Origin: Escherichia coli
GTDB lineage: Bacteria > Pseudomonadota > Gammaproteobacteria > Enterobacterales > Enterobacteriaceae
DNA length: 43,104 nt
Direction: 5' to 3' (one strand)
Assembly (NCBI RefSeq): GCF_003334385.1
Contig: NZ_QOWN01000036.1
A program made the position numbers and the translations under genes. The notes beneath the pieces are model-generated. The model saw only the letters and a program-made list of their open reading frames with translations, did no database searches and had not been told where the DNA came from. The stretch's first letter is position 1. Each line of letters opens with the position of its first letter. Of this stretch, positions 1,804 to 16,656 are shown piece by piece.

Positions 1804-3096
1804 TCACAGATACGGCGACCAGGCAGGGAATTTGACCTGTCCATCAGTTGCCGGAAGACGCGCTTTGAAACGCCCATCTGTAGAAACCAAATTCAGCACG
1901 GATCCCATCCCCTGAGAAGAGCTGTAGATTACCATAGTGCCGTTAGGTGCCAGACTTGGCGTTTCATCCAGGAACGTGGACGACAGAACTTGTACGCCTC
2001 CCGTTGCCAGATCTTGTTTGGCAATGTGCTGCTGCCCACCATTGGAGCTGACCATTACCATAAATTTACCGTCGCTGCTGACATCCGCATCCTGGTTCTG
2101 CGAACCTTCCCAGGTAATACGTTGTGGCGCACCGCCGTTGATATTCACTTTATAAACCTGCGGACGACCGGCCTGGTCAGAAGTAAATGCCAGGTTCTGG
2201 CTATCCGGGAACCAGGTCGGTTCGGTATTGTTACTGCGACCATCAGTCACCTGGCGGATCTGACCAGAAGCCAAATCCATTACGTACAGGTTCAGACTAC
2301 CGGTTTTCGACAAGGCGAATGCCAGTTTGCTGCCGTCTGGCGAGAATGCAGGTGCACCGTTGTGACGCGGGAATGAAGCCACCTGACGTACAGCGCCATT
2401 TGCCAGCGTCTGAATAACCAGCGCGGAACGACCGCTTTCGAAGGTCACATAAGCCAGTTTAGAACCGTCTGGTGACCACGCCGGAGACATCAGCGGCTGC
2501 GGTGAACGGTGAACGACAAACTGGTTGTAACCGTCATAGTCAGATACGCGCAGTTCATACGGGAACTGACCGCCGTTGGTCTGAACAACGTAGGCAATAC
2601 GAGTACGGAACGCACCTTTAATGCCGGTCAGTTTTTCAAACACTTCATCACTGGCGGTATGACCAGCATAACGCAGCCACTGCTTGTTCACTTTGTACGA
2701 GTTCTGAGCAAGTACAGTACCCGGTGCGCCGCCAGTGTCAACAAGTTGATAAGCAACATTGTAAGAACCATCCGGATTCGGAGTGACCTGACCGACAACT
2801 ACAGCGTCAATGCCCAGTGCGGACCATGCAGCTGGTTGTACTTCCTGCGCACTACCCGGCTGCTGTGGCAGACGAGCGCGATCTAACGGATTAAATTTAC
2901 CGCTGTTACGCAAGTCAGCAGCAACGATGCCGCCAATATCTTCAGGTGCCGCACCAGGCCCCGCCCACTGGAAAGGAACAACACCAATAGGACGACCGGA
3001 ATCTACACCGCTGTCGATCACAATGCGGACTTCAGCATGCAGAACTGATGCCCACAGTATGAGAAAACCAAATGCTACTCGTAATGCCTGCTTCAT
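1804..3096 (-). CDS. tolB: Tol-Pal system periplasmic beta-propeller protein TolB
   Basis: 430 aa from the second Met ([21 protein letters not shown] signal peptide); sequence recognised as TolB. Confidence 0.95.
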
Positions 3097-10224: not shown

Positions 10225-12858
10225 TCAGGCAAGCCGGTAACTGAACGTCCGTGACTGGCCGGGTAAAAAAGGCCCCGATAGATTTGAACCTTGATTTTCC
10301 TCGGTGGTAATGTGTTCATCCATCATCGTTTCTGAGCAAGAAATCACCTCGCGACTGAAAGCAACAGTCGCATCACAGGTTGCTGATTCAGCCGGATTAA
10401 ACAGCCGTAAAATCACTTCTTGTCGGTCTTCAGCTTTCTTAAGTGCGCTTATCAGGCATCCCACTGGGGGCATTTTCAACAAACTATAACTTTCCGGCAC
10501 GTTGAATCCGGCTTTGTTGAGCTTCATCACATCCCATGGGATTTTGTTGTAACACTGTACTGGAGTCAGCCATGCTCGCGCCTGCTGAGCTACACCAGCG
10601 GCGGTTGGCGTACCGGTATAACTCAATAAACTTAGGCGACAAGAAAGCAGACCACGTAGTTGTGAGTCCGGGACTGGCATTTTAATTCCCGAAGGCCGCC
10701 CAGGCCTTAAAAGCAGATCTTCTTTGCCCAGTAAGCCCACGCCACGCAGCAACGTAATGGCAAAGGTTTTCTTCTCTTCACCGATGACTTCAAATTCACG
10801 TAACCCTTCGCTAAAGACAGCCATGCCGTTACGCCCTTCCTGTAAGGCAACATAGTTGAGCATATTCCATACCGGAACCGGCGCTTCTTTCCAGCCTTCT
10901 TGCTGCCAGTTGTTCATTGCACTGTCGTTCACGGGGCGCGTTAGCGAACCAAACTGCGTATCTGCCAGAACACTGTCGGTGTTAAAAGGTGTAGGGACCA
11001 GGACACGAAGGCGATGATCGTCAGCCTGGTTATCAAGATTGATATCCACATCAATACGCCTGCTGTTATGACTAAGAGTGACAACCAACACCACCCCTAC
11101 TCTGCCAGTGGATTGCCGGGCGCTGCGTTCTGACAAATTGAGCGGCACTGCCATGTCATAGCGGATAACAGCCCTGCTCTGCCAGGCTTCATGAATAATA
11201 TCGCATTGCGGTTTCGCGTTCGCTGCGGTAATTACCCACTCTTCTTTTGCGGGTGAATAGTCATATTCATCACCATCATCAGAGCTTTCTTCAATTTGCA
11301 ATACCCGGTCATAGCGCACACCGCTGTCTTTATCTACCAGTTGCAGAGAACCATCCTCATTGAGCGCAATTTGCCAGAAAGCATTTTCCAGTATCCCTTC
11401 AGCGTCACTTTTTGCCGCAATTACGTTGCCAGGCTGATTCGCTTCGATATAAAGCGTGCGATAGCCCATAGAAGGGACAATCTGGTTGATCTGTATATCA
11501 AACTCCATAAAGGGATCGTAATTACCGTAATGAACTATTTGCCGATCGATTAGGCCTGGATCGATCTCACGGGCATGGCGAATAAAATACGGTACAGGCT
11601 GACCGCGATCGTCCCGCAAATTAAACTGGCTGGCGCGCAGCCGCACAGTGGTGTTGATAACTTCTTCACGCGGCCAGGGCATCAGGTTAAACAGGACGAG
11701 TTTGTCGGCGTCGCTCTGCGGCATGTTGTCGGCAATTTTGCGCATGTAGAAACGAATCAGATTATCCGCCATGTCTTCAGCCAGTTCGAAGCGGGCGACG
11801 ATTTCGCGATGAACTTTGTCACTACAGCAGCAGCCGATACTGTCGTGGGCATGATTTTTTAAGATCTCTTTCCACATTTTCTCCAGCAAGCCGTGGTGGT
11901 ATTCAAAACCCAACGTCCAGGCCAGTGTTGCCAGCGGTTCCAGCAGATTAACAATCTTATTTTCAATACGCGCGTGGGCAATTTTGATATCCATACGCGT
12001 AGAACCGATGGTGCGATGCACGCGCATATATTTGCCATCAATAAATTCCCCTTTCAGGGTTGCCAGATTATCTCGCTGCGCTTCGATCTTCTCAAATACC
12101 TCTTCAAAGCGGCTCATCACAAACTTACGTTGAGGGTAGATCTCACGTAGCTTATCCATCACTTCGAAGATATTTTGCTGCAATGGCATCTGGTCATGCC
12201 CATTCGGCAGCAAAATCTCTTTGGTTACAGACGCTTTTTCCAGCACGTCAAAATAACTGTCGAGGCGTTTACGTAATCCGTTTTCGTCGGCAGGTAAGTA
12301 CTTACCGATGGCGTAGCCCAGCGGCAGCACCTGCGCCGTCACTTCGCTACCGTCACTGCTTTGCCACAAAAACTCGGTTTTATCAGTACCGTGGCGCTCC
12401 GAACATCCGCGCCAGAACATGGTGCGGGTAATGCCAAATCCATTGTAGATATGCGGCAGTTGCCCGGACATGCCAAAGGAATCTGGTAAATAACCTATTT
12501 TCATCGGCTCGCCAAACGCGAGGCAGTCACGCATTCCGTACATCAGATTACGGACGATGGATTCCGCAGAAACAATCGTGGTATCGGTCTGGGTATACCA
12601 GGGGCCGATAATCAACTTGCCGGCTTCTACCTGTTTCTTCACACGGTCTTTGTTTTCCGGTTTCACCGCGAAATAATCTTCGAGGATCGCCGTTTGCCCG
12701 TCGAGTACGTAATATTTGTATTCGTTGTCCTGTTCCAGTCGGCACAGGATCTCTTCCATATTATTGACCAGCAGAATACGTGACTCTTCGGTGGTGAAAT
12801 ACCACTCTCGATCCCAGTGCATATGCGGGGTGATGTGAACGCGAGATACTGCTTTCAT
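10225..12858 (-). CDS. mngB: Alpha-mannosidase / mannosyl-D-glycerate hydrolase (GH38)
   Basis: 877-aa ORF with GH38 N-terminal motifs (HMHWDREW); downstream of mngA. Confidence 0.93.
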
Positions 12859-12875: not shown

Positions 12876-14852
12876 TTATGGCATTACGCCATCAGTCAGA
12901 TAGTTGCCATGCTTAACCGCGTGACGCCGCCACATCAGGAGAATTGCAGTCGAGATTGCAGCCCCCACCAATGCCGCGCCAAACCAGCCAATTGCCGCCA
13001 TAACACCGCCCGCGCCATTATCATGAAGTAAAAAGAGCGAGAAAATGCCGGCACCGGGTGTCGAAAGGCCGATATTCATCGCACCGACAATAGCGCCCGT
13101 TACCATAGAGCCCAGCACAAACGAACCAATAACCCGCAGCGGATCTTCAATCGCCATCGGGATCGCCCCTTCGGTAATACCTGCCAGCCCTAACAGCCAG
13201 GTGGATTTCCCGGTCTCAATTTCAAACTCTTTAAACAGGCGCGGTGCGAGCATCGTGGAAGCGGTTACGGTAAATGCCGAAACCATTTTGACGGAGGCGA
13301 AAATGGCATACGGGCCGTAAACGCCGTTCGCCATTGCGCCCAGGCAGAATGCATAAGCGGCTTTATTCACTGGCCCTCCAAGGTCAAAGGAACACATAAA
13401 ACCGAGAATGGCACCCAGCAACAGCGCGTTACTTCCTGACAGACCGTTCAGCCAGGCGGTAAGCGAGTTATTGATCCAGGCGACAGGTTCCCCCACCACA
13501 AACAGCATCAGACTGCCCGCTCCCAACGTACCGAGCACCGGGTAGAGATAAAAAGTCAGGAATCCATTGAATTTACTGCTAAGACGCAAGTGATTTTTCA
13601 CCCAGCGCATCAAGTAACCGGCTATCAATCCGCCAACGACCGCGCCGAGAAACCCGGAGCCGATCATGTTGGCGGCAAGTCCAGCCGCAAAGCCTGGCGC
13701 TAACGCCGGTTTATCTGCCAGAGAATAGGCGGTATAGGCCGCGAGCACCGGTACCATCAAAATTCCGAGCAGCCCGCCGCCCAGCTTGCGGTACATCCAC
13801 AGCCAGGAGTTTTCTTCATTAAACAGATCTTGTAGCCCGAAGATTTGCGACAGTAATACCGCGACCGCCAGCACCGTGCCCCCCGCGACAATCAACGGTA
13901 CGGCAAAAGAGATTCCGCTCAACAGTGCCTGTTTCAGTTCCGTTTTGACACTTTTCACCGGTTGCGTATCTTGCTGTACGGTACGCGTCTCATCGCTACG
14001 CTTGAGGGTAAGCGCTTGTTGGATCAACGCTTCTGCATGGCGAATCGGCTCGGCAACAGGCACTGAAAGCGCGGGAATGCCATTAAAACGCTCACTCTCC
14101 TTGATGGCGACTTCAGCCGCAAAAATACAGGCGGTTGCACTATTGAGTTGATCCGCCGTTAAACGCCCTTCAATGCCGTTAGCGCCTTGTTTTTCAACGT
14201 AAACATTTACGCCGAGTTTGCGTCCGGCTTTTTCCAGATATTCCGCAGCCATATAGGTGTGAGCAATACCCGCCGGACAGGCCGTTACGCAGACGATAGT
14301 TGGCGCGTTGGAAAAAGAGGCAGAAGGTTGCGTGCCTCCCTTGTCATCCAGCGCCGAGAGCAACTCATCAGGCGTCGTCGCCGACTGTATACGCGCCCGA
14401 ATCTCATCATCCGCAAGGCGCGTGGTCAGCGCTGTCAGCAGTTGCATATGCGTAGTACCCGCTTCATTGGGGGGAATCGCCAGCAGCACCACTAAATCAA
14501 CTGCTTCCGGGCCATCAACGCCTTCCCACTGAAGCGGCTCGCTGAGTGTGGCGACCGCAAACGCCGCTTCTTTTACCGCAGCAGTTTTGCCATGCGGCAC
14601 AGCCAACCCTTCACCTAAGGCGGTCGGGCCAAGGCTTTCACGGCGATACACTTCTTCCAGAAATTGCTCAGTACTGGAAATTTTCCCCAGAGCAGCAAGA
14701 CGTTGAGTCAACGCGTGGATGGCCTCTTCACGGCTGGTAAAGCGCGCATTCAGACACAACGCATCGCGGTGGGTCAGAGTCGTCAGATTCATCATGATCC
14801 TCACTTGATCGTTTTTATAGTCGCGCCAGTGTGCCCGATAAAACAATACCAT
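12876..14852 (-). CDS. mngA: PTS 2-O-alpha-mannosyl-D-glycerate-specific EIIABC component
   Basis: 658-aa ORF with fused fructose-type EIIA/EIIB/EIIC domains. An internal Met pair at 14795/14792 has a much better Shine-Dalgarno (gtgagga) than the first ATG, so the true start may be internal. Confidence 0.9.
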
Positions 14853-14861
14853 TATGTGATC

Positions 14862-14881
14862 AATTTCACTTGATTGAAATT
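14862..14881. promoter_or_regulatory. Inverted repeat AATTTCA-N6-TGAAATT in the mngR-mngA divergent region (candidate GntR-family operator)
   Basis: Perfect 7-bp inverted repeat; TGTATT direct repeats lie at 14885-14901 and tcacttgat recurs at 14801 and 14866. Inference only. Confidence 0.3.
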
Positions 14882-14960
14882 ATTTGTATTGTATTTGTAT
14901 TATTTACAGGATGAATTTATCGGGCATAATGGTTAAATTCGTATTAATGAGATACTAAAA

Positions 14961-15683
14961 ATGGGACACAAACCCTTATACCGGCAGATTGCCGATCGCA
15001 TTCGTGAACAAATTGCGCGTGGCGAGCTTAAACCTGGCGATGCGTTACCCACTGAATCAGCGCTACAAACAGAGTTTGGCGTCAGCCGGGTTACGGTGCG
15101 TCAGGCTTTGCGCCAGCTAGTCGAGCAGCAGATCCTCGAAAGCATTCAGGGCAGCGGGACTTACGTCAAAGAAGAGCGGGTCAATTACGATATTTTTCAG
15201 TTAACCAGTTTTGATGAAAAACTGTCGGACCGTCACGTCGATACACACAGTGAAGTTCTGATATTCGAAGTGATTCCGGCTGACGATTTTCTTCAGCAAC
15301 AGCTACAAATCACCCCGCAGGATCGTGTGTGGCATGTGAAGCGCGTGCGCTATCGCAAGCAAAAGCCAATGGCGCTGGAAGAAACCTGGATGCCGCTTGC
15401 GTTGTTCCCGGATCTCACCTGGCAGGTCATGGAAAATTCGAAATATCACTTTATCGAAGAAGTGAAGAAAATGGTTATCGATCGTAGCGAACAGGAAATC
15501 ATTCCTCTGATGCCAACCGAAGAGATGAGCCGTCTGCTTAATATCAGCCAGACAAAGCCGATTCTTGAAAAAGTATCGCGTGGATATTTAGTTGATGGTC
15601 GGGTGTTTGAATATAGCCGCAACGCTTTTAATACCGATGACTATAAATTTACCCTGATAGCGCAGCGAAAATCATCGCGATAA
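14961..15683 (+). CDS. mngR: GntR/HutC-family transcriptional repressor MngR (FarR)
   Basis: 240-aa ORF with N-terminal winged-HTH (ESALQTEFGVSRVTVRQALRQL) and UTRA-type C-terminal domain; divergent from mngAB. Confidence 0.93.
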   Translation: MGHKPLYRQIADRIREQIARGELKPGDALPTESALQTEFGVSRVTVRQALRQLVEQQILESIQGSGTYVKEERVNYDIFQLTSFDEKLSDRHVDTHSEVLIFEVIPADDFLQQQLQITPQDRVWHVKRVRYRKQKPMALEETWMPLALFPDLTWQVMENSKYHFIEEVKKMVIDRSEQEIIPLMPTEEMSRLLNISQTKPILEKVSRGYLVDGRVFEYSRNAFNTDDYKFTLIAQRKSSR

Positions 15684-15686
15684 GCA

Positions 15687-15786
15687 CAAAAAAGGCCATC
15701 ATACGATGGCCAACCATGTCGAAACCGACAGCCCTTCGCCATTCCTGTAGAGGGAAGCGGCGAGGGCTATTTCTTATTACAGATAT
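15687..15786 (-). ncRNA. sdhX: Candidate 3'UTR-derived sRNA SdhX (RybD) downstream of sucD
   Basis: About 100 nt between the sucD stop and an intrinsic terminator (ggccatcgtatgatggcc followed by tttttt on the minus strand, 15687-15712). Assigned from memory of the K-12 annotation, not verified. Confidence 0.45.
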
Positions 15787-16656
15787 TTATTTCAGAACAG
15801 TTTTCAGTGCTTCACCGATATCCGCCAGGCTGCGAACGGTTTTCACGCCTGCGGCTTCCAGAGCAGCGAATTTCTCATCCGCAGTCCCTTTCCCACCGGC
15901 AATGATGGCACCCGCGTGGCCCATACGTTTGCCTTTCGGCGCAGTCACACCAGCGATGTAACCCACAACTGGCTTGGTAACGTGCTCTTTGATGTACGCA
16001 GCTGCTTCTTCTTCAGCGCTACCGCCGATCTCACCGATCATCACGATCGCTTCGGTCTGCGGATCTTTTTCGAACATTTCGAGAATGTCGATAAAGTTAG
16101 AGCCCGGGATCGGGTCACCGCCGATACCGACACAGGTCGACTGACCGAAACCGTAATCCGTGGTCTGTTTAACCGCTTCATAGGTCAGTGTACCGGAACG
16201 GGAAACGATACCCACTTTACCCGGTTTGTGAATGTGACCAGGCTGGATACCGATTTTGCATTCACCCGGAGTGATAACGCCTGGGCAGTTCGGGCCGATC
16301 ATACGAACGCCTGCTTCATCCAGCTTCACTTTCACGGTCAGCATATCCAGCGTCGGGATGCCTTCAGTGATGGTGATAATCAGTTTGATGCCTGCGTCGA
16401 TGGCTTCCAGAATGGAGTCTTTGCAGAACGGTGCTGGTACGTAGATAACAGAAGCGGTAGCGCCAGTGGCAGCAACGGCTTCACGCACGGTGTTGAACAC
16501 CGGCAGGCCGAGGTGGGTGGTGCCGCCTTTACCTGGGGTTACGCCGCCAACCATTTTAGTGCCGTATGCAATGGCCTGTTCTGAGTGGAAAGTCCCCTGG
16601 CTACCGGTAAAGCCCTGGCAGATAACCTTGGTGTTTTTATCGATTAAAATGGACAT
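15787..16656 (-). CDS. sucD: Succinyl-CoA synthetase alpha subunit
   Basis: 289-aa ORF recognised as SucD; 1-nt overlap with sucC. Confidence 0.95.

Follow-up and report, generated by a model that had tools for sequence, protein, structure and literature searches.

The mngA gene of Escherichia coli starts at the ATG at 14792 and encodes a protein of 638 aa; it does not start at the ATG at 14852 that opens its longest reading frame (658 aa), and the first 20 codons of that longest frame are non-coding promoter/operator DNA. Very probably, the region is jointly explained by translation from 14792, by the regulatory nature of the 20 extra codons and by an upstream spacer that houses two promoters. 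The window, that is the whole stretch of 43,104 nucleotides that was analysed, is 99.8% identical to K-12 and contains sucCD, mngR on the plus strand and mngA and mngB on the minus strand. The mngR gene (14961-15683, plus strand) encodes a GntR/HutC-family repressor and lies divergently to mngA in each of the 78 loci with sufficient flanking DNA. Counted from its supported start (ATG 14792-14790, MNLTTL...), the mngA coding sequence occupies 12876-14792 on the minus strand, which leaves a spacer of 168 bp between the two genes, and the long open reading frame runs on the same strand from 14852 to 12876. The PGAP annotation already gives mngA 638 aa from 14792 in 9 of 9 RefSeq genomes inspected, as does the RefSeq non-redundant protein WP_001054864.1, and the curated K-12 record NC_000913.3 (b0731 / NP_415259.1) still carries 658 aa. 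The start ambiguity and the regulatory region are thus ordinary and largely known already, RefSeq PGAP using the short start. The features that an earlier note had described here are all present and correctly placed; the start-codon ambiguity and the TGTATT repeats among them are real signals, as judged by shuffle rates and by a clustering of repressor boxes at 14841-14949.

The direct repeats are the part of the spacer for which the most is documented. Most GntR/HutC regulators bind palindromes, FarR/MngR being a documented exception that binds direct repeats (PMC4494728), with the consensus TGTATTAWTT (Quail 1994, as cited in PMC4494728); secondary citations attribute the binding of MngR to its operator to Quail 1994 and Sampaio 2004. 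In the window the operator consists of two boxes on the plus strand with an 11-bp period (14885-14905), TGTATTGTAT at 14885-14894, which matches the consensus at 8/10 positions, and TGTATTATTT at 14896-14905, which is the sole perfect TGTATTAWTT in the 43 kb. Within 14885-14901 the hexamer TGTATT occurs three times, as two copies of TATTTGTATT, and its middle copy (14890-14895) is specific to E. coli. Three copies of TGTATT are reached in 0.5% of dinucleotide shuffles of 14792-14960, our measure of chance level for all of the repeats discussed here, and a 10-nt direct repeat in 3.5%. Two AATACA boxes 11 bp apart are found in nearly all of 78 orthologous spacers, the operator pair being kept as AATACAAAT-N2-AATACAAAT in the mngA sense. 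The proposal that the TGTATT repeats are MngR sites is thus borne out by their fit to the published FarR/MngR consensus and by their conservation with an 11-bp period. This is the FarR/MngR operator of E. coli (Quail, Dempsey & Guest 1994; Sampaio et al. 2004), identical here in locus and sequence, with the repressor gene adjacent and divergent and with upstream boxes that show no difference.

Two further boxes complete a cluster of four TGTATTAWTT matches (≤2 mismatches) in 14841-14949; across the window such matches are not enriched (57 vs 60.6 expected), and the information lies in the local cluster and the perfect match alone. The third, MngR-like box, GGTATTGTTT (14841-14850, minus strand, 8/10; ancestral form TGTATTATTT), is inverted with respect to the upstream pair and overlaps the ATG of the long open reading frame. 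The fourth, CGTATTAATG (14940-14949, plus strand, 8/10), is likewise MngR-like, has a conserved TTAATAC core and lies immediately downstream of the predicted mngR transcription start, near 14937 (about 765899 on the minus strand of NC_000913.3). Neither the box at 14940-14949 nor that at 14841-14850 figured in the earlier note, and the same is true of the CRP-like site described below.

The mngR promoter is readily recognised as TTTACA-16-CATAAT (14903-14930, plus strand, 10/12 matches in our scan), with a -35 hexamer that overlaps the second MngR box and with both hexamers conserved across Enterobacteriaceae. A consensus scan for sigma-70 -35/-10 pairs on the minus strand found none, which we take to fit activator dependence of mngA and not to mean the absence of a promoter. 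On that strand, at 14855-14870, there is a CRP-like palindrome, AGTGAAATTGATCACA, whose core AGTGA-N6-TCACA agrees at 9/10 positions with TGTGA-N6-TCACA. It is the only copy of GTGA-N6-TCACA in the window and the most conserved block of the spacer; a core of at least 9/10 is present in 45% of 77 distinct spacers vs 1.3% of shuffles, and five spacers, Photobacterium and Aliivibrio being represented among them, have the full 10/10. A -10-like hexamer located 29-34 nt downstream of the palindrome centre is conserved in 75 anchored loci, reading TGnCACAAT in Enterobacteriaceae and TATTAT in Vibrionaceae; its counterpart in the window, the candidate mngA -10 hexamer CACACT (14828-14833, minus strand; TGnCACAAT in other Enterobacteriaceae), pairs with the mngR -10 region in an inverted repeat of 17 nt. 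The elements also keep their order: two boxes, about 27 bp, the palindrome, the inverted box at +12 to +15 and the -10-like hexamer at +29 to +34. With the palindrome centre set at -41.5 and the hexamer at -12 to -7, mngA transcription is predicted to start at 14821 on the minus strand (±2 nt; about 766015 in NC_000913.3). The arrangement suggests, from comparison of sequences, a class II CRP-type mngA promoter flanked by MngR boxes; we infer CRP as the protein that binds the palindrome, the exact transcription start and the mechanism of repression.

Class II CRP promoters of the galP1 and melAB type have the CRP site at -41.5, no -35 and often an extended -10, and the mngA spacer resembles them in its GTGA-N6-TCACA, in the want of a recognisable -35, in the hexamer 29-34 bp from the centre and in the TGn that precedes the -10 in most Enterobacteriaceae. 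It differs from them in that both the transcription start and the CRP dependence are predicted here, in that the K-12 -10 is degenerate and in that the CRP SELEX does not report the site. The mngA operon is a further point of resemblance, being a PTS sugar catabolic operon and so of a class that is typically activated by CRP. Cra/FruR, with which the palindrome shares a TGA-N6-TCA core, was considered as an alternative ligand and set aside by inspection: the inner bases AAWC/GWTT, which in the Cra consensus are Cra-specific, are absent, and the CRP-specific outer GTGA/TCAC are conserved. Among published data sets, RNA polymerase holoenzyme SELEX has a peak in the mngR-mngA spacer; the spacer is not listed in the text or supplements of the CRP genomic SELEX paper (PMC3105977, Shimada 2011), the supplements of Kim 2012 and Mendoza-Vargas 2009 have no entry for a transcription start of mngA or mngR, and a keyword literature search on CRP and mngA expression returned nothing relevant. 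An Rfam scan of 14500-16000 at E≤1 gave no match and hence no known leader RNA.

The K-12 form of the candidate -10, CACACT, is weak and is preceded by GGG, not TGn, and it is changed to CACGCT or CGCGCT in some E. coli alleles. Because the class II -10 is weak and further degraded in this way, another hexamer may serve in E. coli, for example CATAAT at 14856-14851, which was made by the same substitution as the long ATG. In the likeliest of the alternative readings the palindrome is the site of some other factor or part of a larger MngR operator and the K-12-type -10 is CATAAT, with transcription starting at about 14844 (about 765992 in NC_000913.3). The weakness of the class II hexamer in E. 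coli speaks for it, as do the absence of the spacer from the CRP SELEX report and CATAATGGT, a sequence duplicated on both strands that matches the mngR -10 region. CATAAT, however, exists only in the K-12-type allele and is CATAAA elsewhere, and its -35 would have to be TTTCAA, a 3/6 match in a variable segment. The half-sites TGnGA/TCAC, moreover, are kept while the 6 bp between them vary from family to family, the core reaches a perfect CRP match in Photobacterium and Aliivibrio, and the -10-like hexamer keeps its fixed distance from the palindrome centre in all families. On balance we regard this alternative as rather unlikely, with a real but minor chance of being right; transcription from CATAAT would in any event likewise leave the long ATG untranscribed.

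That translation of mngA begins at 14792 is a firm conclusion. Of 80 orthologous loci from Enterobacterales, Aeromonas and Vibrionaceae, which are not phylogenetically independent of one another, 78 have ATG at the codon aligned with 14792, and in many of the orthologs the frame is closed by a stop 3-10 codons upstream of it, as at -9 in Citrobacter, -8 in Enterobacter and -5 in Aeromonas. The Shine-Dalgarno GTGAGGA (14798-14804, minus strand) forms an anti-SD duplex of -7.6 kcal/mol; a duplex at even the -6 level is reached by only about 7.5% of window ATGs, and the GAGGA within it is kept across Enterobacteriaceae. The protein itself points to the same place. The Pfam model PTS_EIIA_2 (PF00359) aligns from its position 6 at residue 30 of the long form of MngA, the alignment to PtsN (1a6j) begins at residue 21, and the mannitol IIA protein (1a3a) has its chain residue 1 extrapolated to residue 21. 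Alignments to solved free-standing EIIA-2 proteins begin at about residues 19-21 of the long form; by Pfam and by solved homologs alike, the EIIA-2 domain stands at the N-terminus of the 638-aa protein. The earlier note had suggested that a pair of Met codons at 14795 and 14792, behind a strong Shine-Dalgarno, may be the mngA start; the comparative data uphold this and narrow it to the second ATG, 14792. It is improbable that the first ATG of the pair (14793-14795, minus strand), or both ATGs, should be used instead, which would give a protein of 639 aa (MMNLTTL...). The first ATG is in frame and shares the same strong Shine-Dalgarno, and its position is occupied by ATG, GTG or TTG in about 30 of 80 orthologs. 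Its gap to the GAGGA core, however, is just 2 nt, against the customary 5 nt at 14792, in most orthologs its position holds a non-start codon (for example CTT, TTT, GTT or ATC) and is followed almost always by ATG, and PGAP picks 14792 over it; the codon at 14795 is probably not the main start.

The ATG of the long form (14850-14852, minus strand) is not a real start. The earlier remark that it has no obvious Shine-Dalgarno is confirmed by an anti-SD duplex of -1.6 kcal/mol, which is background level, vs -7.6 kcal/mol for the Met pair. The codon is absent from all other genera and is missing in at least 649 of the 3,868 locus-carrying E. coli genomes (ATA in 113, out of frame in 536), 3,031 having the K-12 allele and thus 78% of the total retaining an in-frame ATG. 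It arose by a lineage-specific two-base change in the third MngR-like box, from ATAAATGTATT to ATAATGGTATT. Between K-12 and Eco889, the differences at first, second and third codon positions number 19/6/76 in the coding sequence and 0/4/3 in the extension, and residues are changed at 4/20 positions of the extension vs 16/639 of the remainder (Fisher p=0.002). The suggestion that the first 19 or 20 codons are leader/operator DNA is accordingly well founded, given the lack of a Shine-Dalgarno, the unconserved ATG, the absence of coding-type substitutions and the location of the extension outside the EIIA domain.

These same observations bear on the reading in which K-12-type strains do make the 658-aa form, from an upstream transcript and with a 20-residue, lineage-specific N-terminal extension of EIIA. 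In its favour, the long frame is open with its ATG in those 3,031 E. coli genomes, the curated K-12 record retains 658 aa, and Shimada 2014 puts forward, by prediction alone, an mngA promoter, TTAATA-19-GATAAA, whose transcript would include the long ATG. We rejected that pair as the main mngA promoter: a conserved MngR box read on the opposite strand gives the TTAATA, conservation is lacking for GATAAA, the hexamers are not maintained as such, and a 19-nt spacer is atypical. Against the 658-aa form stand also the missing Shine-Dalgarno, the loss or frame displacement of the ATG within E. coli, its absence in other genera, the want of codon-position bias together with an excess of residue change in the extension, and the placement of the ATG within conserved promoter/operator elements and of the extension outside the domain; we hold it to be very improbable. 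The mngA operon is repressed under standard conditions, and our literature search found no proteomic or TIS-profiling data for mngA.

The earlier note had also pointed to an inverted repeat and to a duplicated 9-mer as candidate operators. Both exist as described, the perfect inverted repeat AATTTCA-N6-TGAAATT at 14862-14881 (arms 14862-14868 and 14875-14881) and TCACTTGAT at 14801 and 14866, but neither stands as an operator. Shuffled sequence attains a perfect inverted repeat of 7 nt in 20% of cases and a distant 9-mer repeat in 7.2%. The right arm of the inverted repeat falls in the most variable segment of the spacer, and the repeat, which is lineage-specific, does not survive in the Eco889-type allele of E. 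coli; the 9-mer duplication, too, is not conserved within E. coli. The arm that is conserved is half of the CRP-like palindrome GTGA-N6-TCACA, and in the two TCACTTGAT copies conservation is confined to the palindrome half-site and the Shine-Dalgarno; the repeat and the duplication are by-products of these two elements. That either or both should form a functional MngR operator is the least probable of all the alternatives, for even though both are perfect in K-12 and adjoin the promoter, and palindromes are what most regulators of the family bind, they are at chance level, are broken in the Eco889-type allele and absent from other genera, and would have to be recognised by a documented direct-repeat binder; chance level and lack of conservation are our grounds for rejecting them.

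Taken together, the spacer would work as follows. Its 168 bp would hold two divergent promoters and one common operator array. Two boxes (14885-14905) overlap the -35 of the mngR promoter, with a further box at about +4 (14940-14949), and are the published FarR autoregulatory operator. The mngA promoter, without a -35, would rely on an activator bound at the CRP-type palindrome, whose centre is about 41.5 bp ahead of a start near 14821, and on the weak -10 CACACT, with the inverted MngR-like box at 14841-14850 between palindrome and -10. With MngR on the boxes that flank the palindrome, RNA polymerase and/or CRP would be kept out until MngR is released by inducer. The 60 nt from 14852 to 14793 would then comprise the core of the mngA promoter/operator and a 5' UTR of about 29 nt, with translation from ATG 14792 by way of the GAGGA 5 nt upstream. 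Under the class II promoter model the long ATG lies at about -30, within the third MngR-like box, and in K-12-type strains it is an accident of the ATAAATGTATT to ATAATGGTATT change inside that box.

More tentatively, and with the odds somewhat against it, the spacer may be a switch, shared from Enterobacteriaceae to Vibrionaceae, in which repressor boxes bracket a CRP site: MngR, acting on direct repeats, would occupy a pair of boxes upstream and, inverted, one or two downstream, and a single array would serve for the autoregulation of mngR and, at mngA, for blocking or anti-activating CRP. The two-base change of the K-12 type would have weakened the third box and created CATAAT, so that the regulation of mngA may differ between lineages of E. 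coli. Comparable systems are NanR at nanATEK and NagC at nagE-nagB, where, as here, a sugar-specific repressor of the GntR or ROK family acts at short repeated boxes (direct repeats of TGGTATAW for NanR) with a CRP-activated promoter alongside, a predicted one in the case of mngA; the nag case also has the divergent layout of mngR-mngA. Unlike the nan and nag systems, mngR-mngA has its CRP-like site between oppositely oriented boxes, in an array that also autoregulates the repressor gene. As an annotation matter, the long form belongs with the legacy over-extensions produced by choosing the longest open reading frame, in which an in-frame ATG without a Shine-Dalgarno is preferred to a conserved start that has one, and which homology-aware pipelines such as PGAP correct; it departs from the usual case in that the spurious ATG sits inside the gene's own promoter/operator and stems from a recent substitution in an operator box.

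The value of the result lies mainly in curation, as 20 residues in b0731 / NP_415259.1 and in the resources derived from it are almost certainly never made, and constructs, fusions, deletions and structure models based on the long form include or remove the mngA promoter and an operator box. The understanding of such systems is unchanged by the mngA result. The comparative footprint is, in addition, a testable map of four MngR boxes, a probable CRP site and both promoters, and the CRP site, if true, would link this PTS operon to catabolite control.

The annotation conflict over mngA is real, and one resolution of it, the short start, is already public in RefSeq. In the curated K-12 record NC_000913.3 (genome coordinate = 780836 - window position), mngA (b0731, NP_415259.1) spans 765984-767960 and encodes 658 aa from the ATG at 14852, whereas in PGAP-annotated RefSeq genomes (a second MG1655 assembly, REL606 and seven diverse strains, all in agreement) the gene is 1,917 nt long (638 aa) and begins at window position 14792, with no feature annotated over the long ATG. 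The 20-codon extension between the two starts (14793-14852) is very probably non-coding, and we hold it likely, with good confidence, that the main start is 14792 rather than the adjacent ATG at 14795, since five independent lines agree on 14792: orthologs, E. coli alleles, translation signals, substitutions and a domain boundary.

Scanning a single genome for each species yielded 80 orthologous loci, whose identity over the N-terminal 112 residues is 54-98%; they come from Escherichia, Citrobacter, Enterobacter, Kluyvera, Buttiauxella, Serratia, Rahnella, Hafnia, Aeromonas, Vibrio, Photobacterium and other genera. Of the 80, 78 have ATG at the aligned position of 14792. At that of 14795 most have a non-start codon (CTT, TTT, GTT, ATC, ACG and others), some have GTG or TTG, and a minority has ATG. 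Many orthologs have an in-frame stop 3-10 codons upstream (-9 in Citrobacter amalonaticus, -8 in several Enterobacter, -5 in Aeromonas), so that the 20-codon extension is impossible in them. Within E. coli, the Eco889-type allele of the mngR-mngA spacer, as distinct from the K-12 type, reads GTAAATGT, with the ATG displaced by one base and out of frame; strain WCHEC000837 and Escherichia sp. MOD1-EC7003 have ATA as the 14852 codon. By megablast of 30-mers centred on that codon, with a 28-nt exact word that approximates an exact match, the K-12 allele occurs in 3,031 E. coli genomes, the ATA allele in 113 and the shifted allele in 536.

The earlier note saw no obvious Shine-Dalgarno before 14852, and the strongest pairing to the 3' end of the 16S rRNA there is indeed only -1.6 kcal/mol, with about 40% of the ATGs in the window equally weak or weaker. 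Its preference for the Met pair 14795/14792 is borne out, specifically for 14792: the duplex is -7.6 kcal/mol and leaves 14795 at a distance of 2 nt, too close for initiation in E. coli, and 14792 at 5 nt, a near-optimal spacing. Between the K-12 and Eco889 alleles, the 1,917-nt CDS differs at 101 sites (19/6/76 by codon position) and the 60-nt extension at seven (0/4/3), with 4 of 20 residues changed in the extension versus 16 of 639 in the remainder (Fisher p=0.002). Pfam PTS_EIIA_2 matches long-form residues 30-169 with model positions 6-142, the alignment with E. coli PtsN (1a6j) begins at long-form residue 21, and residue 1 of the mannitol IIA chain (1a3a) extrapolates to that same residue. 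Over-extension of this kind is a classic artefact of choosing the longest ORF.

The window matches E. coli (99.8% to K-12 across 14600-15100), and the locus is carried by 3,868 of 5,426 complete E. coli genomes; it is accessory, since the mngR-mngA junction is absent from the other 1,558. One copy is plasmid-borne, and in strain I3 (H30) the junction match is split (72% coverage in two pieces), pointing to an insertion or deletion within the spacer. On the minus strand lie sucC-sucD, mngA and mngB (10225-12858); mngR (14961-15683) is on the plus strand and diverges from mngA in each of the 78 loci where the upstream DNA reaches far enough. The K-12 reference annotation places the sRNA SdhX (sucD 3' UTR) at about 15686-15786 on the minus strand (NC_000913.3 765050-765150), within the 103 nt that separate the sucD stop from the convergent stop of mngR; an Rfam scan of 14500-16000 gave no match at E<=1. 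An assembly labelled Chryseobacterium sp. 18061 (CACSKA010000002.1, L044) carries an enterobacterial mngR-mngA locus (MngA identity 82%) laid out as in Citrobacter sp. 18056 (L027) from the same project, and is probably mislabelled or contaminated.

Conserved elements follow a fixed order from mngR to mngA, both when 39 distinct Enterobacteriaceae spacers are aligned and when 75 spacers, anchored on a shared CRP-like palindrome, are compared without gaps. Box C (CGTATTAATG, 14940-14949), nearest mngR, is followed by the mngR promoter (-10 CATAAT, 14925-14930; -35 TTTACA, 14903-14908), also the best sigma-70 scan match, then by Box B (TGTATTATTT, 14896-14905) and Box A (TGTATTGTAT, 14885-14894), these two with an 11-bp period. 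Beyond a variable segment of about 12 nt (roughly 14871-14882) come a nearly invariant block (AGTGAAAnTGATCACATAAATGTATT, 14870-14845), a TCTGnCACAAT element (in K-12 CGGGCACACT, hexamer 14833-14828), a variable stretch, the Shine-Dalgarno and the ATG. The earlier view of the first ~19 codons as leader or operator DNA thus agrees with both the non-coding character of 14793-14852 and the conserved promoter and operator elements there.

MngR (FarR) binds TGTATTAWTT repeats and represses mngAB and its own gene according to the literature, and the boxes fit this direct-repeat consensus, attributed to Quail et al. 1994 in PMC4494728; the operator is the known FarR/MngR operator. Four matches with at most two mismatches fall within 110 bp, 14896-14905 being the window's sole perfect one. 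The middle TGTATT (14890-14895) is confined to E. coli, and TTTGTATTTAATTTGTATT takes its place in other genera. In 2,000-3,000 dinucleotide shuffles of 14792-14960, three TGTATT copies arose in 0.5% and a 10-nt direct repeat in 3.5%. In three Rahnella loci (L036, L039, L040) and Hafnia paralvei (L045) the operator is rearranged: instead of two boxes, the palindrome and an inverted box in the usual order, a cluster of three to six AATACA boxes lies 28-71 nt upstream of the mngA ATG, and the CRP-like core is weak or absent.

Every feature of the earlier note is where it was placed: the ATG at 14852 (658 aa), the Met pair behind GTGAGGA, AATTTCA-N6-TGAAATT at 14862-14881, three TGTATT at 14885-14901, and TCACTTGAT at 14801 and 14866. 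As candidate MngR sites only the TGTATT repeats, conserved and rare by chance, hold up. The 7-nt inverted repeat is reached in 20% of shuffles and is gone in the Eco889 allele because its right-arm site reads AGTATCTTGTAAGTGAAAGT; its left arm (14862-14868) belongs to the GTGAAAT of the palindrome and its right arm (14875-14881) to the variable segment. A distant 9-mer repeat is reached in 7.2%, and the TCACTTGAT copies are conserved only in AGTGA, a palindrome half-site, and GTGAGGA, the Shine-Dalgarno.

The palindrome, GTGA-N6-TCACA (14855-14870), lies inside the invariant block and occurs nowhere else in the window. Its half-sites are constant across families while its 6-bp spacer varies, Photobacterium and Aliivibrio have a perfect TGTGA-N6-TCACA core, and the core scores at least 9/10 in 45% of 77 distinct spacers versus 1.3% of shuffles. 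Directly after it stands an inverted TGTATT box (14841-14850), of which Vibrionaceae have two, TTTGTATTTAATAGGTATTATT; in loci L047, L053, L068, L078 and others from Vibrionaceae these MngR-type boxes lie about 15-35 nt past the palindrome centre. Across the 75 anchored spacers a -10-like hexamer is always 29-34 nt from that centre, as TGnCACAAT (an extended -10) in most Enterobacteriaceae and as TATTAT inside the second box in Vibrionaceae, where the repressor would therefore cover the -10 directly. In class II CRP-dependent promoters the CRP site is at -41.5, and judged from this spacing the mngA promoter is somewhat more probably of that type than of another. Transcription in K-12 would then start near 14821, giving a leader of about 29 nt with the Shine-Dalgarno; the palindrome's ligand would be CRP, and MngR on both sides of it may block RNA polymerase and/or CRP. 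Such a promoter would pair the standard class II CRP design with a sugar-specific repressor, in the manner of nan or nag.

A 17-nt inverted repeat, 88% complementary in K-12 and absent from the earlier note's list, joins the -10 regions of both divergent promoters (mngR, 14916-14932, TTTATCGGGCATAATGG; mngA, 14826-14842, TTTATCGGGCACACTGG) and supports the mngA -10 assignment by analogy to mngR, whose promoter is clearer. The putative E. coli mngA -10 is degenerate and has decayed further in some alleles; in MB10 (L088) and 22AR0118 (L089), CACGCT and CGCGCT replace CACACT at the equivalent of 14828-14833, so that either the promoter has decayed in some lineages or the assignment is wrong for E. 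coli. The literature searched yielded no experimental mngA transcription start or CRP data, and the spacer is missing among the CRP SELEX targets in the searched text and supplements of PMC3105977. RNA polymerase holoenzyme binds the spacer in SELEX, with H-NS flagged there in the same table; SlyA over-expression raises mngAB 3.4-fold, and CsrA represses mngA.

With a class II promoter the long ATG (14852-14850) would occupy about -31 to -29, within the inverted box. It owes its existence solely to the ATAATGGTATT that K-12-type strains carry in place of the ATAAATGTATT of Eco889-type E. coli and most other genera. The same change created a minus-strand copy (14856-14848) of CATAATGGT, whose plus-strand copy (14925-14933) is the mngR -10 region, and CATAAT at 14856-14851 could serve as a rival mngA -10 with a start near 14844; the long ATG would be untranscribed there too. 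A class I position (-61.5) was rejected, as it would place the start within the Shine-Dalgarno. In the Eco889 allele (L002, about 14851-14801), the ancestral-type AAATGTATT holds an out-of-frame ATG opening a 16-codon ORF (MYCFIRHTCATIKMIK) that terminates at a TGA within the mngA Shine-Dalgarno; this ORF probably goes untranscribed, though an active upstream promoter would turn it into a uORF.

The main claim of the earlier note is right, although what it describes is ordinary; the only items that may be undocumented are the CRP-like site, the inverted third box and the deep conservation of both. In practice, records of the b0731/P54745 type can be corrected to 638 aa, and the analysis also provides a testable map of the control region.
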